A stretch of 64,000 bases of DNA from an uncultured bacterium (GTDB lineage: Bacteria; Cyanobacteriota; Vampirovibrionia; Gastranaerophilales; Gastranaerophilaceae), in NCBI GenBank assembly GCA_949284035.1, contig CASDUQ010000045.1, positions 71,170 through 135,169 of the forward strand, read 5' to 3'. Under the pieces are notes generated by a model that had not been told where the DNA came from, searched no databases, and was given only the letters and a program-made list of their open reading frames with translations. This document shows, piece after piece, positions 1,061-56,528 of the stretch. How positions within the stretch are numbered: position 1 is the first letter of the stretch; every line of letters begins with the position of its first letter. The position numbers were made by a program, and so were the translations under genes.

Positions 1061-3439
1061 ATGGACAGAACAACAATAAACAACATTTTACAGAATAAAA
1101 ATGTCGTAATGTTTCTTACCGCATTGATTTTTATGACCGGAATTCTGGCCTATTTCAACGATAATGCAATTTTGTGCGCAGGAATTATAACTTTTATTGC
1201 CATTGTTGTTATTTTGAAAAATTATTTACCAATAAAATACATTCTCTTCTGGATAATTGTATTTTATCTCGGCTTTTTTAATGCATATTCAAGAACTAAT
1301 ATAACAGATGGGGTTGTCCAGTTTGCAGGACAGGATGCTGTTATCAGCGGACAAATAATATCAATTCCAAACAGCAGTAACCCGCAAAAAGTCAAGTTTT
1401 TCTTTAGAGTAGACAAAGTTAACGGTAAACCTGTATCCGGCAAAACTCTTATAACTTATACCGGAGATGAAATTTCAGAGCTGCAAATAGGAGATAAATA
1501 TGAGTTTTCCGGCAGGCTGAGGAGCCCTTTTAAAGCCAGCAATCCATCCCAGTTTGATTACGGAAAATATTTACGAAACTTTGATACATTCACTGTTTTC
1601 TACACAGATAATGCAAAAGTTGTCGATAATAATTTAACACCTAAATGGAAATTCCTGCAAAATTTGAATAAACTAAGAGATAGAATTATTAATGTTCATG
1701 CTCAATATCTAAAATCTCCAAATCTTGAAATTTTGGGCGGAGTAGTATTCGGCGATGATGCTGTCGCACCTCCGGATTATATAAAAACATCGTTTGTAAA
1801 CTCAGGATTGCTTCACATTTTAGCGGCCTCAGGGATGAATGTTGCCTTTATATATGCTTTTTGGGTATTTTTTATGAGGCGTATGAGAGTACCATTTAAA
1901 TTTATGGTAATTTCGGGTATGGGAATTGTCATAATTTATACATTTATGACAGGACTTGGTGCTTCAGTCATAAGAGCCGCTCTCATGCTTATTTTAGTAC
2001 TCATTGGAAAACTAATAGACAGAGATGCACATACAGTTTCACTTCTTGCATTCGTTGCAATGCTTATGTTGATTTACAATCCGGCTTTTATAAATAACGT
2101 TGGATTTCAACTTTCATTTATTGTAACTTTTGGACTTTTAACAACCGCAAACGTTATTTTTGAAAAATACAAGAATTCTAAAATACCTCAATGGCTTACA
2201 AGCGCCTTGTTAATTCCCGTAATTGCCCAAATATGGGTTGCTCCGATACAGATGTTCTATTTTAACACTTTCAGCACGTATTCGATACTTGCAAATATTT
2301 TAAGCATGCCGTTTTTAAGTGTGATAAGTTTCGGCGGTTTTATAAGTTCAATTATAGCAATGGCGGCACCTTTTAGCGATAAATTCTGTATGATTATAGA
2401 TTTAATTTTAAATTATGTTCTGCATGCAATTGTTTTTATATCAAATTTATTTGCAAATCTTCCCGGTTCCCTTCTTACAACAACACATCCGAATATTTTC
2501 CAAATATTTGTTTATTATGGTATAGTACTATTTTTCACGTTATCAATAAAAAACGGTCTGAACAAAAAAATTGTATATGCATGTACTGCACTCAGCTTAA
2601 TATTGATGCTGTCATTAATAAATATTCCATCAAAAAATCTTGAAGTAATAACATTTGATGTTCAAAATGCGGACTGTTTTCTAATAAAAACTCCTCAAAA
2701 TAAATATTTTATAATAGACACAGGCAGAGCCGGCTATAAAGGAAGCAATGCCCAGGCCAATTCAATTATTATAAAATATCTTAAAGATAGGGGGATTAAA
2801 AATATTGAAGGCATGATAATAACACACTTTGACAACGATCACTCGGGCGGGGCAGTTGATATTATGAAAAGCCTGAATGTTAAGCAAGTTTATATTAATT
2901 CCTTTGATGACAAATCAATTACATCCGAAAATATATATAAAACTTTAAAAGAATTAAATATTCCGGCAAAAATTCCGCTCAACAACAAATCTATATATAA
3001 TGAAGAAAACTTTAATCTGCAAACATATATTTCAAACTCCGACAAAGATAACGAAAAATCAATAATAACATTACTAACTTATAAGAATTTTGACATGCTT
3101 TTTACCGGTGATGCGGGAACAGAAGCTTTTGAAAAATTGAAGAAAAATATTCCGCACAATGTTGAAATTTTGAAAGTAGGTCATCATGGCGGACCTCATG
3201 TTGTAAATTCTGACATGTTAAATCACTTAAATACAAAAGTCTCAGTAATTTCAACAGGTCCAAACTCTTTCGGGCATCCGAATAAAGGAACCCTTGATAT
3301 TTTGCGAAATACGGATATTTACAGAACTGACCGCCAAAACTCAATAAAAATAACATCTGACGGACAAAACTATACACTTTTTACATACAATAAAGATAAA
3401 AAGAAATACAAAAAATCAAAAGAATTTACTGCAAACTAA
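1061..3439 (+). CDS. comEC: ComEC/Rec2 DNA-uptake channel (OB domain, competence domain, metallo-beta-lactamase domain)
   Basis: GLLHILAASGMNV, TGLGASVIRA, ITHFDNDHSGG, LKVGHHGG, NSFGHP. Confidence 0.95.
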   Translation: MDRTTINNILQNKNVVMFLTALIFMTGILAYFNDNAILCAGIITFIAIVVILKNYLPIKYILFWIIVFYLGFFNAYSRTNITDGVVQFAGQDAVISGQIISIPNSSNPQKVKFFFRVDKVNGKPVSGKTLITYTGDEISELQIGDKYEFSGRLRSPFKASNPSQFDYGKYLRNFDTFTVFYTDNAKVVDNNLTPKWKFLQNLNKLRDRIINVHAQYLKSPNLEILGGVVFGDDAVAPPDYIKTSFVNSGLLHILAASGMNVAFIYAFWVFFMRRMRVPFKFMVISGMGIVIIYTFMTGLGASVIRAALMLILVLIGKLIDRDAHTVSLLAFVAMLMLIYNPAFINNVGFQLSFIVTFGLLTTANVIFEKYKNSKIPQWLTSALLIPVIAQIWVAPIQMFYFNTFSTYSILANILSMPFLSVISFGGFISSIIAMAAPFSDKFCMIIDLILNYVLHAIVFISNLFANLPGSLLTTTHPNIFQIFVYYGIVLFFTLSIKNGLNKKIVYACTALSLILMLSLINIPSKNLEVITFDVQNADCFLIKTPQNKYFIIDTGRAGYKGSNAQANSIIIKYLKDRGIKNIEGMIITHFDNDHSGGAVDIMKSLNVKQVYINSFDDKSITSENIYKTLKELNIPAKIPLNNKSIYNEENFNLQTYISNSDKDNEKSIITLLTYKNFDMLFTGDAGTEAFEKLKKNIPHNVEILKVGHHGGPHVVNSDMLNHLNTKVSVISTGPNSFGHPNKGTLDILRNTDIYRTDRQNSIKITSDGQNYTLFTYNKDKKKYKKSKEFTAN

Positions 3440-14969: not shown

Positions 14970-14985
14970 TGTCTTTCCTTATTTG

Positions 14986-15068
14986 GAAGATAAGAGGGTA
15001 AGAAGATATGAAGATAGGCCGGTTTCTAAAAATTGCTTATCTTCTTATCCTCCTGGCTTCTTATCTTC
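14986..15068. repeat. 83-bp palindrome with octamer-built arms, copy 1
   Basis: 34-bp arms (G + 4 x ARGATARG-like + C) around a 15-nt loop; right arm overlaps the 3' end of the SBP gene. Confidence 0.85.
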
Positions 15069-16898
15069 ATTAATATATATTTCCTCAATGTTATGCGTAA
15101 CTCCGCCTAAGCTTGTCGGATAAATATTTTTAAATTTATTTCTTAAAGCGACAATTCTTATAGGAGAATAAATATATATCAAAGGCTTTTCATCATACAC
15201 AATAGCCTGATATTCATCATAATATTTTTTTCTGTCCTTAAACTTTGTTGCAAGTGCACCTTGAGTATAAAGGTAATCCAGACGGGTTTCAAACGGATAT
15301 CGCTTGCTGTTTAAATCCTTTTCTAACCTCTGATTAAATATATGCAAAGTCCCGTCAGAAAGCCAGACATTTTTACCGCCGTTCGGCTCCAGTGGAGAAC
15401 CGGTAAATCCCATTATCACCATATCCCAATCTAACGTTGCCATAAGTTTATTTACAAGAGAGTTAAATTCAATAGGTTTAAAATTAACTTTCATCCCTAA
15501 ATCTTCCAGGTCCTGTTTTACCATTACTCCTATTGCTTCACGTTCAGTATTTCCCGCATTTGTGTAAAGATCAAATTCAACATGATTTCCGAATTTGTCT
15601 ATCAAATGTCCGGCTTTGTCCCAGTTAAAACCTGATTTTTTTAATAACTCTTTTGATTTTTCAAGATTTCTGTCATAACCTTTTAATTCTTTATTCAAAA
15701 AGATTGAGTTTAGCGTTTCAGGAGTAAAAAGAGGTTCTGCAAGTCCGTTTGCAATATTAAATACCATATTTTTTCTATCTATTGCATAATCTACTGCCTG
15801 CCTGAAATTTTTATCCTGAAACCAAACCTGTTTTTTAGGATCAACATAATATTTACCTTTATCGTCTTTGCGGTTATTCATATTCATAGAAATATACATG
15901 GTTCCCGTATCAGGCCCTATATTGTAAACAGTGAAATTGCCATGTTTTTCCATTTCTTTAAAACGTGCAACATTTGCTCCCTGCAGACTAATCTCATCAA
16001 GTTCCCCGCCTTCAAACTTTAAAACCTGGTTGTTTATATCACCTACTATCAAGTAAACTATTTTATCAAGGTACGGAAGTTTTTTCCCGTCCTTATTTAT
16101 AACGTAATAATCAGGATTTTTTTCAAACACAACCCTTTGCGCCGGAACATATTCTTTCAGTTTGAAAGCTCCTGAGGTTACAAAATCTTTTGGCGGAGTA
16201 TTTGTGGAGAGAAAGCCCTCAAAATACGCCTTACCGCGTTTGACAGCAGGTTCAAAAATATGTTTCGGAGCAATCGGAGATGAAAGCATTCTTAAAAACG
16301 GTGCAAAAGGTTCAGGGGTTACAAATTTCACCGTATAATCATCAATTTTTTGAACAGTCGGCAATTTTCCGTCAATTACTATAGAATCTCTGATTGAAGT
16401 ATTGCCGAATCCATCAAAAATTATATTCTGCCATGTAAATACAACATCATCAGCCGTTATAGGCTTGCCGTCAGACCACTTTAAACCATGCCTTAAATTA
16501 ACAATATATTCTTTTCCGTTTACGGTAAAAGATTTTGCAAGTTTCGGGATAGTATTACCCGTAACCGGATCAGTAGTAACTAATCCGTCATACATAATTT
16601 CTGACATCTGAGAAGAGATGTTATCTTTCGAATTAAACGGATTAAAAGTTTTAGGCCCTTCTCCTATTGTTGATGAAACAAAAGTCCCGCCGAATTTTCC
16701 AACAGGCGCCTGTGATTTAAGGTAATCTATACCATCTATCGTAACATTTTTTTCTAACGGATATTGGGCATCTTTAATTTCTGCTTTATCTCGCAAAACA
16801 GGCTTATTAAAATCAGGCTGCACGTCGGCTCTTATACAAGCTTTCCCGACTCCTAAAATTATTAGTAAAACTAAGATAACATAAATAACCCGTTTCAT
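15045..16898 (-). CDS. Peptide ABC transporter substrate-binding protein (SBP family 5)
   Basis: PKTFNP, YDGLV..DP, LRHGLKWSDGKPITADDVVFT, NFRQAVDYAIDR. Confidence 0.95.
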   Translation of the reverse strand: MKRVIYVILVLLIILGVGKACIRADVQPDFNKPVLRDKAEIKDAQYPLEKNVTIDGIDYLKSQAPVGKFGGTFVSSTIGEGPKTFNPFNSKDNISSQMSEIMYDGLVTTDPVTGNTIPKLAKSFTVNGKEYIVNLRHGLKWSDGKPITADDVVFTWQNIIFDGFGNTSIRDSIVIDGKLPTVQKIDDYTVKFVTPEPFAPFLRMLSSPIAPKHIFEPAVKRGKAYFEGFLSTNTPPKDFVTSGAFKLKEYVPAQRVVFEKNPDYYVINKDGKKLPYLDKIVYLIVGDINNQVLKFEGGELDEISLQGANVARFKEMEKHGNFTVYNIGPDTGTMYISMNMNNRKDDKGKYYVDPKKQVWFQDKNFRQAVDYAIDRKNMVFNIANGLAEPLFTPETLNSIFLNKELKGYDRNLEKSKELLKKSGFNWDKAGHLIDKFGNHVEFDLYTNAGNTEREAIGVMVKQDLEDLGMKVNFKPIEFNSLVNKLMATLDWDMVIMGFTGSPLEPNGGKNVWLSDGTLHIFNQRLEKDLNSKRYPFETRLDYLYTQGALATKFKDRKKYYDEYQAIVYDEKPLIYIYSPIRIVALRNKFKNIYPTSLGGVTHNIEEIYINEDKKPGG

Positions 16899-16949: not shown

Positions 16950-17830
16950 TTATTCCCACAGTTCACATTTTTTATCTTTTATATAATCCATGTTTCTTCC
17001 GTAAATAACATGTGCGGTACAGTAATCACCTCTATTCACCATATTATTATCGGAACTCATTCCTTCTAATTTAACCCCGGCAGGAATAATTTTATCCGCA
17101 TAAACGTAAAATGAAAATAAATCTACACCCATCTGATTAGGGCCTGCAAAGCCGTTTACATCAACCCTAAGTATTCCACAACTGGCCCAAGTATTAGTAC
17201 AGTCGGATTTGAATGTAATTGAAGAAAGCAACAATCCGTCATTTAATACCGCATTTGAATACCACTGCATTGTATTAAAATTTAGTCCAAAAGCATACGA
17301 ACCTAAAGAACTGTAACTAACATCAGGGAAACAACCGCTTTGTTTTTTCCCGCAGCTTTTTACCACATTCATATAAGGTAAAAGATAATACAGGATATCT
17401 TCTTCATCATTAGTTGAAGATTGATAATTTACAAGATTCCAACCAGAAATATCCCCATTGTCATTTTTTGCCATTATATACGCATTACTTATAACTGTAT
17501 AAAATTTATTCAATTTGGAAATTATAACCTGTTTTTTGTGATTTGCAATTAACGAAGGCATAGTCATTGCGGCAACCACGCCGATTATGCCAAGAGTTAT
17601 CAAAACCTCAGCCAGGGTAAAGGCAACACTTTCGGATGATAAGAGGATAGGAGGCTTAGAAGATAAGCCATTTACAATAAATTGCTTATCCTCATATCTT
17701 CTTACCTTCTTATCTTCTAATGTATTGGGATCCTGAAACGAGTTCAGGATGACTGAAAAACTAGCCTTCTTGCCCTCTGTTAGCTGGGAACGCCCCCCCC
17801 CCGACGTTTCAGGTTAATTAACTTTTTCAT
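16950..17830 (-). CDS. Type IV pilin-like gene, frameshifted (phase OFF) at a G10 tract
   Basis: SD GGAG + ATG 17830; G10 gives a stop after 16 aa; G11 or G8 opens an uninterrupted frame into VA|FTLAEVLITLGIIG and the ORF called at 16950-17603. Confidence 0.85.
17635..17717. repeat. 83-bp palindrome with octamer-built arms, copy 2 (inside pilin leader)
   Basis: Same 34/15/34 geometry as copy 1; loop also ends AAATT. Confidence 0.85.
17729..17753 (-). repeat. REP-like GTCAT palindrome (inside pilin leader)
   Basis: GTCATCCTGAACTCGTTTCAGGATC on the minus strand; related copies at 18329 and 30309. Confidence 0.8.
17793..17802 (-). repeat. G10 homopolymer (slippage tract)
   Basis: Ten C on the plus strand, starting in codon 10 of the pilin gene. 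Confidence 0.95.
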
Positions 17831-18036
17831 AACTCGCTCCTTTTTTAATATACAAACTCTATAAATCAATTATAGAATATTTTTATCAAATTTTCAAGTG
17901 GCAGATAAAACCGCATTGACTAAACTTTGGAATATTTATCCCAAAAATTAATTTTTCCTTAAGAAAATTAAATTTTTTATGAATTCGTTATATAAATATA
18001 ATGTAGACTTGAATTAGGAGAAAAGGAGAGAATATT

Positions 18037-18321
18037 ATGTTAAAACCATTAGGAGACAGAATTGTAATTAAAGTTATTGAAGATACTGAACAAACCTCAG
18101 GCGGTATTTTTATTCCTGACAGTGCTAAAGAAAAACCGCAAAAGGGTGAAGTTGTTGCAGTAGGTGCAGGTAAAATTAACGACAAAGGCGAAAGAGAACC
18201 TATGGACGTTAAAACCGGAGATACAATTCTTTATGCAAAATATGCAGGAACAGATATTAAAATTGATGGCGTAGAGTACAAAATTCTATCTGTAAAAGAC
18301 GCATTAGCAATTATTGAATAA
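18037..18321 (+). CDS. groES: Co-chaperonin GroES
   Basis: [34 protein letters not shown]. Confidence 0.98.
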
Positions 18322-18328
18322 ATAAACA

Positions 18329-18390
18329 GTCATCCTGAATTTATTTCAGGATTTCATGTTTATCAGATGCTGAAACAAGTTTAGCATGAC
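18329..18390. repeat. REP-like doublet (two inverted GTCAT palindromes) between groES and groEL
   Basis: GTCATCCTGAATTTATTTCAGGAT-14nt-ATGCTGAAACAAGTTTAGCATGAC. Confidence 0.8.
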
Positions 18391-30190: not shown

Positions 30191-30274
30191 CTATATAGAA
30201 TGTCTATAAAAATGCAGACCTTATTTTTATTCAAATATACAGCAATAATGATCTTTTACAAATTTAATATAATT

Positions 30275-30462
30275 GGGAATTAATCGCAGCTTACACTAGA
30301 ATATGTGTGTCATGCTGAACTAGTTTCAGCATCTCTCAATAGTTAGGCTCTGAACTTGTTTCAGGGTCTATCAACACAGAGATTCGAAACACGGAGGTCA
30401 ATCCGACGTTCGGAATGAGACTGTATTTGTAATACATTTAGTGTAAACTGCGATTAATTCCC
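30275..30462. mobile_element. 188-bp MITE with 24-bp TIRs and 8-bp TSD, containing nested REP-like palindromes
   Basis: TIR GGGAATTAATCGCAG(C/T)TTACACTA at 30275-30298 and 30439-30462 (1 mismatch); ATATAATT at 30267-30274 and 30463-30470. Confidence 0.9.
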
Positions 30463-30498
30463 ATATAATTTTATATAATTATTTTAAAAGAGGACAAA

Positions 30499-40034: not shown

Positions 40035-41088
40035 TATGAAATTATTTGAAAAAATAAGCGACCAAGCTGCCCCCCCCCCGAACGAACAAGTTAAAATTTT
40101 CGGAATAAATTTTTATGAAAAATATTATAAAAATGGGAAAGAAGTAAGAAAATTTTTATATAACATTTTTAAAATAATAACATCACCCACTAGCAAATCT
40201 TTTTATATTGTAGGGATAAAAATTTTTTATAAAAAATATACAAATAAACAAGAACTTAACTTACTTTATGAAATTATAGGAAACATAAATTTTACTAGAG
40301 AAGAATTAAAAAAATATCTACATAATATAATTCAAGAAACTATAATTGATGAAACACGTATGGCGAATGCAGTAGCTTATTTGCATTCTAAAGTATTTCC
40401 ACAGTTTAAGAATTGTAATATAGGTAAGGATCTTGTGATTGTAGGAACAGGTCCGACTTTAAATAATTATAAATTCAATAAAAAGTTAATACATGTTGGC
40501 TTAAATCGGGCATTTCTGGCCGATAATATCAAGAAGCTTGATTATACATTTCTTATTCATTACAACAAAACATCTTCTACATATATAGAAGAATTGTCAA
40601 AGTATGATTGTATTAAGTTTTTTGGACAATATCATTTTAAAGATATATTGGATTGGAATATTCCTAATATATATGCAAATGCGAAGAATATATATAGATA
40701 TTTTATTGATAGAACATTATTACACCCAAATATTGAAGTTGAAGGTTTGTATGATCCTGGTTCAATAGCTTTTTCAGCTTTACATTTTTCTTTATATACA
40801 CATCCAAAAAGAATATTTTTGGTTGGTTGTGATTGCACTCAAAATGGTTATTATGATAACTCTGTTGAACAGGTCAAATGGTTGGGACTGGCTAATACTT
40901 TAAAAAGTTATCCTATATTAAAAAACTTCGCACAAATTTACTATCCAGATATAGAAATAATTTCAGTAAATCCAATTGGATTAAGAGGGATATTCAGAGA
41001 TGTATATACAAAAAGTTATGTTACTGATAATCCAGAATTATTTATAGGACTTGAAGATAAAATTGAGTATTTTGAAGACATAGTATAA
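40027..41088 (+). CDS. Maf/DUF115-like transferase with in-frame C10 tract (likely start ATG 40036)
   Basis: KDLVIVGTGPTL, VGLNRA, SIAFSALHFS..IFLVGCD; GCT GCC CCC CCC CCG. Confidence 0.7.
   Translation: MFNMKLFEKISDQAAPPPNEQVKIFGINFYEKYYKNGKEVRKFLYNIFKIITSPTSKSFYIVGIKIFYKKYTNKQELNLLYEIIGNINFTREELKKYLHNIIQETIIDETRMANAVAYLHSKVFPQFKNCNIGKDLVIVGTGPTLNNYKFNKKLIHVGLNRAFLADNIKKLDYTFLIHYNKTSSTYIEELSKYDCIKFFGQYHFKDILDWNIPNIYANAKNIYRYFIDRTLLHPNIEVEGLYDPGSIAFSALHFSLYTHPKRIFLVGCDCTQNGYYDNSVEQVKWLGLANTLKSYPILKNFAQIYYPDIEIISVNPIGLRGIFRDVYTKSYVTDNPELFIGLEDKIEYFEDIV
40070..40079 (+). repeat. C10 homopolymer (slippage tract)
   Basis: Ten consecutive C in a very AT-rich gene. Confidence 0.95.
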
Positions 41089-41103: not shown

Positions 41104-41868
41104 ATGAGTAAAAAACACAAAATAATAGCTATAATACCAGCGAGGTATGCATCAAGTCGTTTCCCAGGTAAACCACTTGCTGATATTTGTGGGAAACCTA
41201 TGATTTGGTGGGTTTATGAACAAGTGAAAAAAGTAAAAGATTTTGATGGTATAGTAGTTGCGACTGATAGTGATATTATCATTGAAGAATGCAACAAATA
41301 TAATATAAAAACAATTAAGACTTCAACTAAACATCCTACACATATCAATAGATTAAAAGAAGTATCTGATAACATCTCATCAGATTTGTATGTTTGTATT
41401 TGTGGAGATGAACCTTTAATTGATCCAGAGACTATTAAGTCTGTTATTCCCACGAAAGAAGAAATTAACTCATCTTTTTATGTTGGAGCTTTAATGAGAG
41501 AATTTAGTGAACCAACAGAGGTAATTGACCCAGCAAATATTAAAATAACAACAAATGATAATAATTATTGTGTATCTCTATCAAGAAGCCCAATACCTTT
41601 CCCTTATAAAACAATTCAGTTTAAATATAAAAAAATTGTTGGCGTTGAATGTTACTCAAAAGCGACTTTAGACTTTTTTGCAACTACAGATGCAGGATGT
41701 ATTGAAAAAATCGAGGATATAACTCTTTTAAGATTTTTAGAAAATAGAATACCTATAAAATTTACTCTAGTTGAAACAAATGCTTTATCCGTCGACACAC
41801 AAAGAGACTTAGAAAAAGTTCGACAAATTATAGAACATAGAGAAAGAGGTAATTATGAGACAAATTAG
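41104..41868 (+). CDS. kdsB: KdsB-family ulosonate cytidylyltransferase
   Basis: IIPARYASSRFPGKPLADI.GKPMI, VATD, GDEP, VDTQRDL. Confidence 0.8.
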   Translation: MSKKHKIIAIIPARYASSRFPGKPLADICGKPMIWWVYEQVKKVKDFDGIVVATDSDIIIEECNKYNIKTIKTSTKHPTHINRLKEVSDNISSDLYVCICGDEPLIDPETIKSVIPTKEEINSSFYVGALMREFSEPTEVIDPANIKITTNDNNYCVSLSRSPIPFPYKTIQFKYKKIVGVECYSKATLDFFATTDAGCIEKIEDITLLRFLENRIPIKFTLVETNALSVDTQRDLEKVRQIIEHRERGNYETN

Positions 41869-45298: not shown

Positions 45299-46399
45299 TT
45301 ATTTAGAATTTTTACGGAATAATAATTTAAATAATATTGGTATCAATGCAATTCCAGAAATAGGAATACCAATAAAGAACTGCTCAATTTTTTCTTTTAA
45401 CGCAACCTCATTATCGAATAATTTGTATAAATGTTTATAAAATCTTAGAATTCGTAGTGCCGTATCTTTATTTGAAAACAAAATATTTTCGCTTTTGGGA
45501 ACATAAGAATTATCACAATATTCTTTATAATCCAATTCAAAATTATAAAAATTATACAGGTATATATACTGTTCACCGGTAAACGGTTCATACTTACTGC
45601 TGGTGATTTTCAAATTCCTTATACCCGACTGTTTGTATTCCAGAAATATAAAATTGTTTGCAAGACATATTCTTGATTTTTCATTAATCTCTTCAGAGAT
45701 ATCAGAACAATCTTCCATTTTTATATCATCAAAATACTTTGAAAAACATGAATAACCTAAATATTGTTCCGGAGCAAAACGCCAGCTGAATTTTAAATAA
45801 ACAGATTTTTTATCTTTATTCTCAGGGTACTCAAAATAATTCGAAAAATATGGTTCTTCTACCAGTTCTGATGCAAGCAAATATTTTTTTACGTCATTAC
45901 TAAAACCGAAAAACCACCAATCAGAAATATGAAAAGCAATTTCTTGAGGTCTGCTATGTTTAACCTCAAAAATTTTTGAAAATAATGTAGATGCCAATAT
46001 ACGATGTTCAAATAATTTATATTTATCACATCTTTTTGGGAAACAATCAAACATTTTCAAAAAATCTGTATTATCGATTACAGAATCTGTACGTAACTTA
46101 AGTATATATTTACGTGAAGCCTTTTCAACTCCAGATTTTGTTGATACAAGCATTCTATTTAAATTACTATATAATTTTTTATTTTTAAAATTTTTCTGGA
46201 GAATTCCGCCAGGATCTTTATTCAAAATAAGAATATCATAGTTCAAACCTGAAACATCGGAGTTTTCCCATGTTGATAAAATAATCTCTGCTTCGGGCAA
46301 ATTTTTTCTTATACTATTGAGACATTGCATTGTCCTAATTCTATGCACAGGGCCTTGAACAACGACACTTATCTCTTTTGATTCTATTTTTTTCTGCAT
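45299..46399 (-). CDS. WavE-family LPS/capsule synthesis protein
   Basis: ISVVVQGP, IILSTW, DPG..N..R, KLRTD, FHISDWW.FG, APEQY. Confidence 0.8.
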   Translation of the reverse strand: MQKKIESKEISVVVQGPVHRIRTMQCLNSIRKNLPEAEIILSTWENSDVSGLNYDILILNKDPGGILQKNFKNKKLYSNLNRMLVSTKSGVEKASRKYILKLRTDSVIDNTDFLKMFDCFPKRCDKYKLFEHRILASTLFSKIFEVKHSRPQEIAFHISDWWFFGFSNDVKKYLLASELVEEPYFSNYFEYPENKDKKSVYLKFSWRFAPEQYLGYSCFSKYFDDIKMEDCSDISEEINEKSRICLANNFIFLEYKQSGIRNLKITSSKYEPFTGEQYIYLYNFYNFELDYKEYCDNSYVPKSENILFSNKDTALRILRFYKHLYKLFDNEVALKEKIEQFFIGIPISGIALIPILFKLLFRKNSK

Positions 46400-47457
46400 A
46401 TAACCTCCCCGGGCAATGAAAATAAAAACTTACAAAAATAGAGAAAAGTTGAAACCAATTCAACCAACTTTTTCTCCGGATTGCTTAATATCAATAAAAC
46501 AAAATGTTTTCTTAACTGTTCAAAATATTTAATTTTATATAAATTTTCCAAAAATTCTACATCTTTTATCTCATAAGAATTATCACAGTATTTTTTATAA
46601 TCCTTTTTTTGTTCGGCAAGAGAATAATACATAAACTGATTTCTTGCCTGCATTATTGTTCCGGAATACTGTTTCTTTAAAGTAAAAATTCCCCATTCCG
46701 TTGATGAAAAGACTCTAAAATTATTTATTATAAAATCTTCAGATATTGTAATATTTTCGGGATTTACATCCAAATAGTTTCCAAACTTCAAATTGTTAAA
46801 AACTTTTAGCGCATTAGAATATGTAAAGTATTGCTCCGGAGACATTCTCCACAATCTTGCGGGGAAAATATCAGTTCCAGCTTTATTATGAGACTCAAAA
46901 TATCTTGAAAATTCAGGTTCTTTAACTTCCGGAATATTAAACAGCTCCTCCAAGTCCCGACGTAAACCTAAATAACACCAATCAGAAATATGAAATAACA
47001 TACTTTGTTTTATACCTTTACAGGTGTTGAACTTTAAAGAAAAAATATCGTAGGCAAAAATTCTGTCTTTAAAAAGTGAAGAAGATTTATTCCTATGTTT
47101 AAAGCTATCAGATAATTTTAAAATATTATCATTTTTAAGAACAAGATCATTCCTCATTCTTAAAACATACTTTCTTTCGGCCTTTTTTATACCATTACGG
47201 CTTGAAATAAGTATTCTGTTTAAACTGTTTGTTTTTTGTTTTTCTGTCTCAAATACAACAGCACCAGGATCATCATTTAAGACAAGAATATCATATAAAC
47301 CATCGTAAGGAGAAACATCAGAATTTTTCCAGGTCGACAAAATAATCTGAGCTTCGGGTAAATACTTTCTAATACTCTTCAAGCAGGGAATAGTCTCACA
47401 AGGGGTAACAGCCCCCTGAATAACTACAGATAAGTCTTTGCTTGAAATTTGTTTCAA
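46384..47457 (-). CDS. WavE-family LPS/capsule synthesis protein
   Basis: LSVVIQG, IILSTW, DDPG, RMRND, FHISDW, SPEQY. Confidence 0.8.
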   Translation of the reverse strand: MKQISSKDLSVVIQGAVTPCETIPCLKSIRKYLPEAQIILSTWKNSDVSPYDGLYDILVLNDDPGAVVFETEKQKTNSLNRILISSRNGIKKAERKYVLRMRNDLVLKNDNILKLSDSFKHRNKSSSLFKDRIFAYDIFSLKFNTCKGIKQSMLFHISDWCYLGLRRDLEELFNIPEVKEPEFSRYFESHNKAGTDIFPARLWRMSPEQYFTYSNALKVFNNLKFGNYLDVNPENITISEDFIINNFRVFSSTEWGIFTLKKQYSGTIMQARNQFMYYSLAEQKKDYKKYCDNSYEIKDVEFLENLYKIKYFEQLRKHFVLLILSNPEKKLVELVSTFLYFCKFLFSLPGEVICRKK

Positions 47458-51876: not shown

Positions 51877-54042
51877 TTAGATATCCTCTAAAGTTTTCAT
51901 AAGATCAACTTCTGTTAATTTTACAGGATTATTAGATAATCTATTTAAATTTACAGACTTTACAACAAAATCCTTATCAATATCTATAAAATTTGTTCTC
52001 TTTAAATTTATATCATCAAATAACTCTACAAAATATTCTTCTGCATTCTTTATACCTAGTAATTCATAAATTTCCTTTACTCTGCTTACGACAAAATCAA
52101 AACCTCGTTTATCGTTACAATTTTGAGTATTAACATATAAATTAAATTGCATCAATTTTGCAATAAATAAAGATACAGCATAACCATGAGGGAAACCATA
52201 TTCTTTTGTCAAAACATATGACATTGCATGTGCTGCAGTAGTTCTAGATATATTTATAGCTTTCCCTGCCAAATTTGAAGCCAGTGCCATATTATTAGCA
52301 GCATTTATATCTTCAGTATTAACAAATTTTGCAAGATTATCTTTACATAACAAAATTGCTTGTTTCGCATATTCTCTACTAACCGGAGTTGATCTTACAG
52401 CCCAATAACTTTCTATAGCATGGCAAAATGCATCCATTGCTGTACAAGCCTTAATATACCGTGGAGAACCATTCAAAAAATTACTATCTACAATTGCATA
52501 TTCAGGTAAAATAGATTTATCATCCAATGAATGTTTTACCCCATCTATATAAATTACTGCAAATTGTGTTGCTTCAGAACCTGTTCCGGCTGTAGTAGGT
52601 ATTGCAATAAGTTTTTGCTTAGACTTTGCATAAACTCTATAAGCCTTTGCAAAATCTATCACACTTCCTCCACCAACTGCCAATATTATATCAAAATTCT
52701 TATCAATAGTGTTTATAGCTCTTTTAATATCAGCCTCTTTAGGATTTGTTTCAAAATCATTATAATAAACTATATTTATATCTGTTAACTCTTTTTCAAT
52801 GATTTGTTTAAATTTTTGATAAGATTTTTTCCCAGTAAAAACAAGAGCACTCTTTATATCTTCAATTTTCAAAATGCTAGATAACTTTTCAATAGCTCCA
52901 CGATAAACAAATTCAATCTGTTCAAGATTTTCCATAAAAATCTTTTTATTTTCTTGCGGTTTTTCCTTTGGTCTACCGAGGTTATCCCTAGCACCACATT
53001 TAACTTTTATTTCCAGAAAAGACATACATTTATTAGAAATAAATTCTGGCAACACTCTGAGAAGCTCGGATTCAGTTGAAACTGTATAAGATTTTTGATA
53101 TCCACAATCTAAAGCAATCTTTGCTAGACTGGATTTATAGACTGCAGTTGGCTGTGAACCAACAGAATCATGAGCTTCATTATTAAATACAATATGTTTA
53201 AAATTTACTAATTCTTTTGTTGCATTTACGGTTAAAGCTCCTTGGTGCATTAAACAAGCCCCATCACCATCAAAACAATATATATTCCTATCTAACTTTT
53301 CTAGAGCTATTCCCAGAGCAATAGAACTTGAATGTCCCATTGAACCAACGGTTAAAAAATCTTGCCTATGAGATTGTCCTAATCGCTCTCTTATTTCATA
53401 AAGTTCTCTGGAAATATGCCCAGTAGTAGAAACTACAATATCATTCAATGACAAACATTTTATTATAGTTTCGATTGCATATTCCCTACTCATTGTATAT
53501 GAACTTATTTTTTTATTCTTTAAAAGATATTTTTCAAACGTTCCTTTTTTAATAATAAATGCATATGAACAATTTGTTTCACGCATATAAACAAAAGCCT
53601 CATTAATCTTTTTTTTAGCTTCTGAAATATCTTCAGGCAAAACACTGTATTTAATTCCCATCGCATCTAGCAACTTATCAGTAACCTTACCCTGTTTTAT
53701 ATGCTGTGGTTCATCTTTTTTCCCAGGCTCTCCTCTCCATCCAATCAACATGAATACAGGGATATTATAGACTTCTTCATCAACTAAAGAAAGAAGTGGA
53801 TTTATACAATTTCCAATTCCAGAATTTTGCATATAAACACAACCAATATTCCCAGTTGCAAGGTAATGTCCAGCCGCAAGAGCAATTGCATTCCCTTCAT
53901 TTGCTGTAATTGTATGATGCTTTTCGTCTACATTATCAGTAACATATGCACAAAAATCTTTTAACAAACTGTCTGGAACCCCACAATAGCATTCCACATC
54001 ATTTTGTTTTAAAATATTAAATAAGTCTGCAACATTTATCAT
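51877..54042 (-). CDS. aepY: Phosphonopyruvate decarboxylase fused to Fe-containing alcohol dehydrogenase (phosphonoacetaldehyde reductase)
   Basis: GVPDSLLK, ANEG, MQNSGIGN, EPQH, VGSMGH, DGDGA; then AVGGGSVID, IPTTAGTGSE, DAFCHAIESYW, TTAAHA. Confidence 0.9.
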   Translation of the reverse strand: MINVADLFNILKQNDVECYCGVPDSLLKDFCAYVTDNVDEKHHTITANEGNAIALAAGHYLATGNIGCVYMQNSGIGNCINPLLSLVDEEVYNIPVFMLIGWRGEPGKKDEPQHIKQGKVTDKLLDAMGIKYSVLPEDISEAKKKINEAFVYMRETNCSYAFIIKKGTFEKYLLKNKKISSYTMSREYAIETIIKCLSLNDIVVSTTGHISRELYEIRERLGQSHRQDFLTVGSMGHSSSIALGIALEKLDRNIYCFDGDGACLMHQGALTVNATKELVNFKHIVFNNEAHDSVGSQPTAVYKSSLAKIALDCGYQKSYTVSTESELLRVLPEFISNKCMSFLEIKVKCGARDNLGRPKEKPQENKKIFMENLEQIEFVYRGAIEKLSSILKIEDIKSALVFTGKKSYQKFKQIIEKELTDINIVYYNDFETNPKEADIKRAINTIDKNFDIILAVGGGSVIDFAKAYRVYAKSKQKLIAIPTTAGTGSEATQFAVIYIDGVKHSLDDKSILPEYAIVDSNFLNGSPRYIKACTAMDAFCHAIESYWAVRSTPVSREYAKQAILLCKDNLAKFVNTEDINAANNMALASNLAGKAINISRTTAAHAMSYVLTKEYGFPHGYAVSLFIAKLMQFNLYVNTQNCNDKRGFDFVVSRVKEIYELLGIKNAEEYFVELFDDINLKRTNFIDIDKDFVVKSVNLNRLSNNPVKLTEVDLMKTLEDI

Positions 54043-55361
54043 TATTTAGCCCCCGGAATTAATGTAATAACTTCTTTGATAGGCATACAATACTCTTCTG
54101 ATGCCTCTTTACATCTATGATTATTAAGAATAGACTTTGCAGTATTAACCATTGCAGGATATGCTGCTCTTAACAAATGATTTGCATAAATTACAATATT
54201 TATACCATTATCTATTAATTCCTGCTCTGTTACCTGATTATATGAGGAAGGCACTACTACAAGAATTTTCCTATTTGGTAATTTATTGTATAACCTTGCA
54301 AATTCTTTAATTTCAGCAAAATCCTTTTTACGAGAATGAATCATTATTCCATCTGCACCAGCGTCCAAATATATTTTTGCTCTATTTATTGCATCATCCA
54401 TTCCCTGCTCTAAAATCAAACTCTCAATGCGTGCAATAATCATAAAATCTTCTGTAACTTGAGCTTGTTTTCCTGTACGTATCTTTTGTGCAAAATCTTC
54501 TGGAGTATCTTGCTGTTGAAATACCTCTGTACCAAATAAAGAATTTTTCTTTAAACCGACTTTATCTTCTATAATAATAGCTGAAACGCCAAGCCTTTCC
54601 AAAGTTTTTACAGTAAAAATAAAATGTTCTTGAGGTCCACCGTTATCACCATCATAAATTATTGGTTTTGTAGTAACTTCAAGAATATCGTTTAAAGTAT
54701 CCATTCTTGATGTTGTATCCAAATATCCTATATCAGGCTTTCCTTTAGCAGCAGATTGAGTTAATGATGAGATCCAAATTCCATCAAACTCTACATTATG
54801 TCCATTTTCTTCTATACTTGTATTTTCAACTATCAAACCAGATAGTCCATTATGAGCTTCACAGATAGTTACTATCTCTTTCGAATCAAGTAATCTTCTT
54901 AATCTATGACATCTAATCTCTGGAGTGGTCCCAACTTCTTTTAACACTTGGTTCAACTTTGTAGAAGAAATTCCTTCAGTATAAGGAATATCAATAACTT
55001 TTCCTCCCCATTTTTGCATTACTTCAATTATTCTCTGTCTTGTTTCTGCCTGAATACCGGATTTCCAATCATCACCGTGAAGTACATAATCCGGTTTTAT
55101 CTTTTCAAGATTCGGAACATAATCCAGTGTTTCTTGAGGAACAACTCGAGTAATACCTTTAACATTTTCAATAATAGTTTTTCTTTGTTCAAATGTCATA
55201 TAAGGTAAACGTTTGTAACTTGCAATAGCTTTATCCGTAAGTAGACCAACTATAAGTTCTCCGCCACCTTCTTTTTCCAAAAGTTTTCTTGCCTCATTTA
55301 TAATATTTAAATGTCCAGGATGTAATAAATCCGCACTCATTCCAATATAAATTTTTACCAT
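54042..55361 (-). CDS. aepX: Phosphoenolpyruvate mutase with N-terminal cytidylyltransferase domain
   Basis: HPGH and HGDDW; [18 protein letters not shown] (EDKxxxxxNS), IARIES. Confidence 0.95.
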
Positions 55362-55373
55362 GTTAATAACTCC

Positions 55374-56528
55374 TTATTCTACGATATCTGCTAACAACTC
55401 TTTAGATATTTCTTTATACTCCTCAAAATGTTTAGATTTAACTGTAAGTGGAATCGTTTTGAAATCTCCATAAATCTTTTCTAAACATTTATCAATATTG
55501 TGGGGCGCCCAGAATTTCATTCCCTCAAAATCAATTTGCTTCAATGGAAATATATCAGATTTAAGAAAATATTTACGATATTTATATGCAAAAAAAGTAA
55601 AATTATCTATACCATAATAAATTCTATCAGTTCTTTTATTTATTATAGGATCATTTTTAATTAAATGATCTATAAGCTCTGAAAGTTCTCCAAATGATTT
55701 ATTCCCACGTTTTTTAGAAATTTCATTTATATAATTTTGATAATCTTTTTTCTTAAATTTATTAGGGTAGTTATCCATTGAAAAGATATCAATCACCTTA
55801 AAATCTCTTATCGTACCCTTTATTAGTTTAAAACATATTGGCATTTTAAAACAAAATGTTTTATTTTTATACTTATCAAAATTTTTAATAAGTTCATTCA
55901 TATAATTTGACCAATTCCAATTCGTGCTATCAACAACTGGATATTTTGTAGTAAAATACTCCACTGCCTTTTCATAGTCATCTCTCATTAATACGAAATC
56001 AACATCTTCATCCCAAGGGATAAACCCATTATGATATTTAGCACCCAGAAGTGATCCATAAAATATTATGGCTTTAATTCCTGTTTCTTGTTCTAATTCA
56101 GATAACATTGTATCGCAATATTTTGCACTTTCCAACTGATAGATTCTTAACTTACCAGTTGCTGATTTAATTTTTGTTCTATCAACTTTCTTTATAAATC
56201 TATAATAATTATAGGAATCTTGTACGTAAGTTTTATAACTAACCCCATACTGTTCACTATGCATTTTTATAGTATTATATAAAGTATCATCTTTTATAGA
56301 ACTAGCAGCTAAATAATCAAGCATCTGCATCATTTCTCTATAAACTGTACTTTTAATAGATATTAAAGATTGTTCGTAAATATTTTTATCACTTATAAAA
56401 TCTTCACTTTCTAAATTATGGATAAACTTAAAATTCATATAATTAATTTTAAACTTAAACTTAACACCTAAAATTCTCACAATTTTATGGTTATTATCTT
56501 CATTTATTGAAAAGAGTTTCTCTAACAT
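55374..56528 (-). CDS. LicD-family phosphotransferase
   Basis: YGSLLGA.YHNGFIPWDEDVDF, IDIF, YGDF. Confidence 0.9.
   Translation of the reverse strand: MLEKLFSINEDNNHKIVRILGVKFKFKINYMNFKFIHNLESEDFISDKNIYEQSLISIKSTVYREMMQMLDYLAASSIKDDTLYNTIKMHSEQYGVSYKTYVQDSYNYYRFIKKVDRTKIKSATGKLRIYQLESAKYCDTMLSELEQETGIKAIIFYGSLLGAKYHNGFIPWDEDVDFVLMRDDYEKAVEYFTTKYPVVDSTNWNWSNYMNELIKNFDKYKNKTFCFKMPICFKLIKGTIRDFKVIDIFSMDNYPNKFKKKDYQNYINEISKKRGNKSFGELSELIDHLIKNDPIINKRTDRIYYGIDNFTFFAYKYRKYFLKSDIFPLKQIDFEGMKFWAPHNIDKCLEKIYGDFKTIPLTVKSKHFEEYKEISKELLADIVE

Follow-up and report, generated by a model that had tools for sequence, protein, structure and literature searches.

Neisseria pilC is phase variable through a poly-G run in the region coding for its signal/leader peptide. 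In the Opa genes of Neisseria, CTCTT repeats in the leader-coding region cause ON/OFF frameshifts, and most members of this multigene family are OFF (PMC3960869). At the poly-G/C loci of Campylobacter jejuni and Helicobacter pylori, runs of 9–13 nt are located at the 5′ end of genes for surface structures. Here we describe a type IV pilin-like gene on a stretch of 64,000 nucleotides from an uncultured bacterium of the Gastranaerophilales (assembly GCA_949284035.1, contig CASDUQ010000045.1), referred to as the window. The gene has a tract of ten G residues (G10) close to its start codon and, behind the tract, a long predicted leader made of palindromic repeats. As at Opa and PilC, the repeat is located just past the start codon, in a part predicted to be removed later, and would switch a surface or pilus protein by frameshift. 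Unlike at Opa and PilC, it lies in the class III leader of the pilin-like subunit itself, with up to ~150 additional leader codons behind it; the host belongs to the uncultured Melainabacteria, and 36 of 37 species-level copies are OFF. The tract length, its 5′ position in genes for a surface structure and the low-GC gut host are shared with the Campylobacter and Helicobacter loci; unlike there, the tracts are confined almost entirely to pilin leaders, which hold 44 of the 46 G/C runs of at least 8 nt in the sampled loci (413 kb).

Class III leaders stay in the cytoplasm and are removed at its membrane face after Gly or Ala (PMC4471445, PMC10191384), Ala at −1 being an accepted variant (PMC10191384). 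The present gene resembles them in its hydrophilic leader ending in Gly/Ala, with Phe+1, Glu+5 and some 20 hydrophobic residues behind it. It differs in leader length, which is 6–26 aa and at most ~30 aa in the class, against a predicted 70 aa here, a family median of 67 aa and a maximum of ~210 aa. Palindromic elements can be accommodated in frame within genes without destroying them, as described for the Rickettsia palindromic element, RPE (PMC10969869). The leader repeats are comparable to RPE and to intragenic miniature inverted-repeat transposable elements (MITE) or repetitive extragenic palindromes (REP) as dispersed palindromes in frame in genes; similarity to RPE in sequence was not seen, though no search aimed at it was made. 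RPE occurs in the mature protein as a conserved peptide, whereas the leader repeats are found in a segment predicted to be discarded and use any open frame. They also recall the REP and bacterial interspersed mosaic elements (BIME) of E. coli, as short GC-richer multi-copy hairpins between cistrons or at gene ends, polymorphic for presence among strains; the sequence families differ and Rfam has no match.

We consider it probable, with considerable room for doubt, that the locus is a phase-variable type IV pilin-like gene of the DUF6613 family in a Gastranaerophilales gut bacterium, whose discarded leader tolerates in-frame palindromes. If this is correct, homopolymer phase variation would extend to an uncultured and widespread gut lineage, the non-photosynthetic relatives of Cyanobacteria, and to prepilin leaders, and class III leaders could reach 70–200 aa, several times the textbook limit. 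Literature searches retrieved no account of pilins with phase variation or long leaders in Melainabacteria.

Gene structure and pilin class membership

The elements of the gene, in the order of transcription, are as follows.

Minus strand, between the SBP gene (15045–16898) and the divergently transcribed groES (18037–18321): pilin-like gene
17869–17897, minus strand: putative sigma-70-like promoter TTGAAA-17-TATAAT, the best site of the region, called by consensus match (11 of 12 positions)
17837–17840, minus strand: Shine-Dalgarno (SD) motif GGAG, read from the sequence, 6 nt ahead of the ATG
17828–17830, minus strand: prepilin start codon ATG, opening MKKLINLKRR; the sole canonical start
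17793–17802, minus strand: G10 homopolymer tract, the putative frame switch, 10 codons past the ATG
17780–17782, minus strand: TAA closing the ATG frame at G10; product by translation MKKLINLKRRGGGVPS
17759–17792, minus strand: post-tract module CGTTCCCAGCTAACAGAGGGCAAGAAGGCTAG, multi-copy in metagenomes and present in other pilin leaders
17730–17750, minus strand: REP-like hairpin ATCCTGAA-N5-TTCAGGAT, translated VILNSFQD
17635–17717, minus strand: 83-bp palindrome of octamer units, translated EDKKVRRYEDKQFIVNGLSSKPPILLSS, ending 4 codons before Phe+1
17715–17717, minus strand: polymorphic codon, GAA (Glu) in the window and TAA in L002, L005, L008 and runs X2 and X3 (17717 C>A on the plus strand)
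17619–17624, minus strand: predicted prepilin-peptidase site Ala(−1)/Phe(+1), cut between 17622 and 17621, motif AFTLAEVLITLGIIGVVAA, placed by alignment with 114 homologs
16950–17621, minus strand: mature pilin-like protein of 223 aa, DUF6613 family, and stop codon
Predicted leader peptides of the ON form: ASFSVILNSFQDPNTLEDK and YEDKQFIVNGLSSKPPILLSSESVA

The open pilin frame extends from 17813 to its stop codon (16952–16950) and reads SGGGRSQLTEGKKASFSVILNSFQDPNTLEDKKVRRYEDKQFIVNGLSSKPPILLSSESVA/FTLAEVLITLGIIGVVAAMT..., with FTLAEVLITLG at the mature start. In the G10 state the ATG is one base off this frame, and its own frame ends 6 codons past the tract. One base gained or two lost would join the start to the pilin frame, giving a predicted leader of 70 aa at G11 or 69 aa at G8. 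A leader of ~70 aa in the ON state, against 7–13 aa for the two other pilins of the window, had been claimed in the first-pass annotation. The lengths obtained are 70 aa with G11 for this gene, whose ON state is hypothetical, and 7 aa (MKFGYNG) and 12 aa (MNNTSIFYSKQG) for the other two, both of which end in Gly. The mosaic it had described, of G tract, REP-like palindrome and 83-bp octamer palindrome reaching close to the cleavage site, was recovered as well, all of it on the minus strand and with refined coordinates.

The tract has the form of a contingency locus, which is a homopolymer of at least ~8 nt within the 5′ coding region whose change in length shifts the frame. In the proposed switch, translation would begin at the SD-ATG at 17830 and cross the tract after 10 codons, with G10 as the OFF state. 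Slipped-strand mispairing during replication would be the most likely cause of a change in tract length, so that switching would take place at the level of DNA. The 57 codons between the tract and Ala/Phe contain no stop in the pilin frame, compared to 5 and 5 in the other two frames, and the leader was fully open in only 60 of 5000 dinucleotide shuffles (1.2%). An open leader frame is thus unlikely to have arisen by chance.

A leader that is never translated, with the pilin starting at an unrecognised codon beside the cleavage site and the upstream ATG-G10 forming a separate small open reading frame (ORF), would dispense with the switch. The family does include short leaders with their own ATG (MKNRA/F in P0038, MHGKKFYNYKIA/F in P0007), and internal Met codons occur in some of the long ones. 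In the window, however, the stretch from the stop at 17816–17814 to Phe+1 contains neither an SD nor an ATG, GTG or TTG in the pilin frame. Such a start would also leave unexplained the length of the open pilin frame, tens to hundreds of codons, at 80 loci in which the other frames close after 5–6. We regard this explanation as extremely improbable. A 9-nt pairing CCUGAAACG/CGUUUCAGG around the G tract was also considered and dropped; the 91-nt fold was no better than that of shuffles (z −0.73), and locus L003, with the same ATG-G10 head, has a different REP downstream.

At the predicted cleavage site the class III motif is present as ...SESVA/FTLAEVLITLGIIGVVAAMTMP, with the Gly/Ala end, Phe+1, Glu+5 and ~20 hydrophobic residues. 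The residue at −1 had been noted as Ala rather than Gly; Ala is what is read, and it is also the family norm (Ala in 105 and Gly in 9 of 114 homologs). F1, T2, L3, A4 and E5 are invariant among 26 aligned homologs, and the mature protein retains all 27 family-invariant residues, the four cysteines included. An AlphaFold2 model (pLDDT, predicted local distance difference test, 91.6) has an N-terminal helix of 53 residues (3–55) followed by six strands that form a β-sheet head. Foldseek comparison of this model with the PDB gave nothing significant (best E 0.6).

The curated motif models do not recognize the protein. Pfam PF07963 (N_methyl) scores 14.8 bits, below its cut-off of 21.2, and aligns from Phe+1 only, and NCBIfam TIGR02532 was not reported, whereas the two window paralogs with Gly at −1 pass both. 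The low score is attributed to Ala at −1 and to the missing short leader. Sub-threshold matches to pseudopilin/ComG models start at residue 70–71. The gene is thus of relevance to pilin-finding software, as it fails the curated motif models and is truncated by gene callers. The family is very large, with at least 7629 proteins at E ≤ 0.001 among 8000 candidates scored. Precomputed annotation of homologs gives PF20318/DUF6613 with or without N_methyl, and among their names at NCBI are 'type II secretion system GspH family' and 'prepilin-type N-terminal cleavage/methylation domain'. DUF6613 was never reported by local Pfam scans; the precomputed annotation gives PF20318 for P0001, a 99%-identical protein. 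No type IV pilus machinery or pilD was found among the annotated parts of the window, and pilD has been reported for a member of the Gastranaerophilales (PMC5877343).

Long open leaders and their palindromic repeats

The window was assigned to Candidatus Gastranaerophilales (Melainabacteria) by an exact GroES match, a protein search and a genome scan, among gut metagenome-assembled genomes (MAGs) from chicken, manure and other hosts. Two sets of relatives were compared. The protein set comprised 120 homolog cluster representatives, 114 of which have the FTLAE site. Called leaders in these 114 have a median length of 67 aa; 87 are at least 30 aa and 16 at least 100 aa long, with a maximum of ~210 aa. 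Many of them start with M-x(5-12)-GGG or PPP, and translated palindromes (VILNSFQD, ILKQVQDD, MLKQVQHD, HPKLVSGS, HSELDSESI, GATHVAH, and the octamer palindrome too) are found within them. Since gene callers bias protein lists of leaders, the test was repeated on DNA, with 80 loci from different GTDB species, the mature domain alone having been used to retrieve them. Upstream of Phe+1, the pilin frame of these loci stays open over a median of 33 codons compared to 5 and 6 for the other frames, and open stretches of at least 40 codons were counted 29 times compared to 2 and 1 (Wilcoxon p = 6e-13).

The density of perfect GC-containing hairpins is 1.72 per kb for the leaders, compared to 1.14 per kb for other intergenic DNA and 0.04 per kb for coding DNA. 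The leaders are ~40-fold above coding DNA (p = 2e-21) and not significantly different from intergenic DNA (p = 0.075). They take up repeats like non-coding DNA and yet stay open like coding DNA. These results support the view that the leader is a translated, open stretch holding palindromes of intergenic type, and that this trait is family-wide in Gastranaerophilales pilins. The first-pass annotation had proposed the leader as an in-frame harbour for palindromes and had set, as its check, an enrichment of repeats in leaders over intergenic DNA. Tolerance and frame-keeping stand, given the open frame in 80 loci and the hairpin density relative to coding DNA; the enrichment does not reach significance.

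One widespread homolog, found unchanged in at least 24 contigs, has AGGAG 7 nt ahead of its ATG, a leader of 67 aa and no G/C tract, which indicates that long leaders are stable ORFs. An A8 run in codons 4–6 of this homolog (MKLVKKRCKEL..., L100/L101 701–730) may likewise be slippery. Partial tandem duplications of the cleavage-site region (...AAFTLAECATHVAHFDDIRQAAFTLVEGNTHVA...RRAA/FTLAEV), one or two per leader, were seen in L012, L026, L027 and L066 and in proteins P0012, P0013, P0032, P0056, P0077 and P0118, each followed by a GCGAC...GTCGC hairpin translated ATHVA. The duplicated regions could serve as decoy or alternative peptidase sites.

In the window, the REP-like hairpin (17750–17730) has 8-bp stems and a 5-nt loop (−8.9 kcal/mol, z −2.9), and the arms of the octamer palindrome are at 17717–17678 and 17674–17635 (−27.9 kcal/mol, z −3.8). 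The REP pattern has three copies in the window against 0.03 expected, and the octamer arm two against 0.00 expected. Both behave as dispersed repeats, being multi-copy, present also between genes of the window and in the leaders of other species. Presence/absence polymorphism is seen at orthologous sites, with REP and octamer absent from the leaders of L091–L093 and a groES-groEL spacer of 93 or 21 nt. The leader element is the palindrome itself; there is no alignable empty site from which its ends or a target-site duplication could be defined. An Rfam scan of the repeats gave only sub-threshold matches to microRNA-hairpin families.

The octamer palindrome is open in only 1–2 of its 6 frames, and each leader copy (window, L018, L020, P0118) is placed in the same open frame. 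The REP family has three of six frames open, and these are the three translations seen (VILNSFQD, ILKQVQDD, HPELVSGS). One DNA repeat is translated SRFTLHTSLKK in some leaders and RTYSPIHLFSYS in others. The REP+octamer blocks of the window and L020 are 81% identical, while the mature domains share just 39% of residues. What is conserved in the leader repeats is the DNA and not the peptide. Since the same repeats are translated in different frames in different leaders, the peptide sequence appears unconstrained, and only the lack of a stop and the right register are kept.

Three orthologous loci with the syntenic order groES-pilin-SBP in related species (L091–L093) have the same SD-ATG-tract head. 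L091 carries G11 and is ON, reading through as MKNLGNFGGGGSLRL...KIA/FTLAEV with a leader of 50 aa; L092 and L093 carry G10 and are OFF. Neither the REP nor the octamer palindrome is present in any of the three. The palindromes thus appear to be later additions, and the register of 'G10 OFF, G11 ON' was kept across the change. The post-tract module follows G10 in L020/L094 and is partial in L092/L093.

These observations can be accommodated in the preferred reading as follows. The 57 codons between the tract and Ala/Phe would be dispersed genomic repeats, namely the post-tract module, the REP-like hairpin and the octamer palindrome. The leader would be cut off in the cytoplasm in spite of its length. 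Because it would stay there and be discarded, 'no stop codon' and 'right register' would be its only constraints. Repeats landing in an open frame with the register kept would survive, and leaders would in this way have grown to 30–200 aa. We infer that the repeats persist in the leader because the peptide is discarded, and that the present gene copy is still functional. Such leaders would offer a natural experiment in reading-frame filtering of selfish palindromic repeats where the peptide is discarded.

The palindromes could instead have a function, either as RNA hairpins of the coding leader that set messenger stability or slow translation, or as recombination sites at which start modules are swapped among paralogs. 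The four octamer copies compared as DNA (leader, window 14981–15073, L018 and L020) have a common 33-bp hairpin, in which the changes are mostly AU to GU, and the order of REP and octamer is kept between the window and L020. The tract module is ~18-fold multi-copy and joined to varied heads and tails, and L003 and L004 are rearranged at repeats. This covariation is, however, based on four sequences only. Both palindromes are absent from L091–L093, many tract-bearing leaders are short and without a hairpin, and leader hairpin density is not significantly above intergenic. A function of this kind appears quite unlikely.

Contigs of the repeats have 4–18 times the depth of their flanks in the metagenomes, the post-tract module reaching ~18 times in run X1. 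Across runs X1–X9, the tract module (17759–17812) and the pilin N-terminus (17570–17623) have 10–18 times the depth of flanking unique DNA, and at loose contig ends several ATG heads and several repeat tails are joined to one tract module. The raised depth and the varied heads and tails together indicate that many paralogous leaders of tract-module design coexist in the samples. A scan of metagenome contigs for the post-tract module returned one locus only, the same gene as L020.

Frame state of the tracts and of the gene in its own species

A G/C run of at least 9 nt is present in the leader at 37 of the 80 loci, with lengths of 9–13 and one C16 at a contig end; 22 of the 37 have length 10. 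In 36 of the 37, SD and ATG are found upstream of the tract, at 12–37 nt (two at 52–84 nt), and the pilin frame has no stop between the tract and Phe+1. At 28 of the 37 loci no pilin-frame start codon precedes the tract, and 11 lack one over the whole stretch upstream of Phe+1. Expression at these 11 loci, as in the window, therefore depends on a frame change at the tract.

The SD-ATG is out of frame (OFF) in 36 of the 37 assembled tracts, each by one base, with 25 loci needing +1 nt and 11 needing −1 nt. All twelve C10 tracts are in the same register, ON at C11. Shuffling of lengths among loci gave an expectation of 9.7 ON (P = 1e-5), and against an expectation of one-third ON the excess of OFF has p = 6e-6. 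Alleles that look ON are L091 (G11), L022 (C11) and proteins P0009, P0023, P0036 and P0118. An assembly artefact was rejected as the cause of the bias; corrections of both +1 and −1 are needed, and assemblers are blind to frame.

Two readings of the OFF bias remain. In the first, ON would be rare or selected against in dominant gut populations, giving a default-OFF repertoire by analogy with the Opa genes (PMC3960869). In the second, decoding would occur at the level of RNA or the ribosome, with no DNA change needed; the genes would be kept deliberately one base off and be read through slippage of RNA polymerase or frameshifting of the ribosome at the G/C run, with low and stochastic output. 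The displacement of 36 of 37 tracts by exactly one step, where 9.7 ON would be expected, the common register of all the C10 tracts and the sharp length peak at 10 (22 of 37) would all be accounted for by this second reading. The two directions of correction, 25 loci against 11, would not, nor would the occurrence of in-frame alleles (L091, L022, P0009, P0023, P0036, P0118) and the length polymorphism of the tract within the species. Efficient transcriptional slippage is documented mainly for A/T runs, which also counts against it.

Programmed −1 frameshifting employs a hairpin or pseudoknot 5–9 nt past a slippery run and a single direction of shift, and the tracts have neither. Structure in the 45 nt that follow the tract was not in excess (mean z 0.02 over 38 loci), so that classical −1 stimulators are disfavoured. 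The suggestion in the first-pass annotation that the strong hairpins downstream of the G run could tune frameshifting found no support; in the window the first hairpin starts 42 nt past the tract, and L091–L093 keep tract and register without the hairpins. Taken together, decoding without a change in DNA is improbable.

A bolder version of phase variation, which we put forward tentatively and think somewhat doubtful, is that the Gastranaerophilales keep many pilin-like genes deliberately one nucleotide out of frame at G/C10. ON would then be rare and stochastic, arising by DNA slippage with strong counter-selection of ON or by slippage at the RNA level, and the leaders would act as a neutral coding 'sink' for mobile palindromes. 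A default-OFF repertoire of this kind, if true, would be a combinatorial system of surface variation with no described counterpart among type IV filaments, and its leaders would exceed all known ones in length several-fold. The near-universal OFF state, in 36 of 37 species, is a testable puzzle concerning the use of many pilin paralogs in the gut.

Within the species of the window, tract alleles were read from assembled contigs (Logan contigs for the runs), which show alleles and not heterogeneity within a population. The alleles are G9, G10, G9AG and G10AG. Several observations, here and above, weigh against a functional switch. None of the seven conspecific assemblies with a tract (window, L001, L002, L003, L005, L006, L008) is functionally ON. 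Six of these tracts are out of frame, and the sole in-frame allele (L002) has a TAA in the leader. This TAA, at 17717–17715, is present in three of six conspecific gene copies (L002, L005, L008) and in runs X2 and X3. Of the gene in L004 only ~190 nt at the 3′ end are left, the 5′ part being lost. In L003 the pilin gene is lost; promoter, SD, ATG and the G10 head remain, and behind them come different REP and octamer repeats, with dnaJ next. A query with the ON form had no full-length match among 5.8 billion proteins. The part of the leader next to the site, SSESVA, lacks the basic residues common in homologs. The predicted 70 aa are outside the range of known prepilin leaders, 6–26 aa and at most ~30 aa, beyond which experimental precedent is absent (PMC4471445). 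Simple unselected phase variation, moreover, does not predict 36 OFF out of 37.

L003 and L004 (each at about 2500–3000) encode a GroES identical to that of the window, and their rearrangements are at repeats.

Many of these points would fit a gene that is decaying as a pseudogene in this species, in which invading repeats have cut off the pilin from its start codon, leaving a residual open frame that has yet to gain stops. The absence of an ON allele from all seven assemblies, the leader TAA in three of six copies and in two runs, the loss of the 5′ part in L004, the bare ATG-G10 head beside dnaJ in L003, the lack of basic residues near the site and the missing ON form in the protein database count in favour of decay. 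The 57 leader codons of the window allele, however, are free of stops, compared to 5 each for the two other frames. The mature coding sequence is intact, with no frameshift or stop, in five of five conspecific copies (L001, L002, L006 and L008 included), and the 27 family-invariant residues with their four cysteines are kept. The register of G10 OFF and G11 ON is common to L091–L093 despite different leader content, and long open leaders are the norm in other species. The within-species dN/dS is uninformative (4 synonymous and 3 non-synonymous sites). We judge decay to be rather unlikely, and retain a phase-variable gene with a tolerant leader as the preferred reading.

Other repeats and neighbouring genes of the window

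Copies of the leader repeats are found at the following positions elsewhere in the window.

18332–18352 and 30312–30332: related REP copies
14983–15070: second octamer palindrome, between the SBP and permease genes of an ABC operon
18327–18390: groES-groEL spacer, with the REP-like hairpin (18332–18352) and then a second ATGCTGAA-type palindrome, recognized by eye

The SBP gene (15045–16898) takes its final 8 codons (NEDKKPGG) and its stop codon from the second octamer palindrome, and its product has 617 aa in the window and 612 aa in L004. The spacer between groES and groEL measures 93 nt in the window, L001, L002, L005, L006, L008 and L009, and 21 nt in L003, L004, L007 and L010. The difference is a 72-nt insertion absent in some strains, and L003, L004, L007 and L010 encode identical GroES. 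A MITE-like intergenic element of 190 bp (30274–30463) has 25-nt terminal inverted repeats, 96% complementary, and encloses REP-type hairpins (ATGCTGAA...TTCAGCAT and others).

The 64-kb window has just two G/C runs of at least 7 nt, the pilin G10 and a C10 at 40070–40079. The latter is in frame, 11 codons into MKLFEKISDQAAPPPNEQ... of an ORF on the plus strand (40036–41088). This ORF has a weak match to MptE-like/DUF115 and belongs to a glycan cluster, beside a CMP-sugar cytidylyltransferase gene (41104–41868). Genes of the MptE-like/DUF115 class in glycan clusters are phase variable in C. jejuni. The ORF looks like a second contingency gene; a look-up of neighbours for this C10 gave one further C10 copy only.

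A cluster for phosphonate-type glycan decoration is located at 51877–56528. It comprises a fusion of thiamine pyrophosphate (TPP)-dependent decarboxylase and iron-containing alcohol dehydrogenase (51877–54042), a fusion of phosphoenolpyruvate (PEP) mutase and cytidylyltransferase (54042–55361) and LicD (55374–56528), with glycosyltransferases and two WavE genes (45299–47457) in addition.

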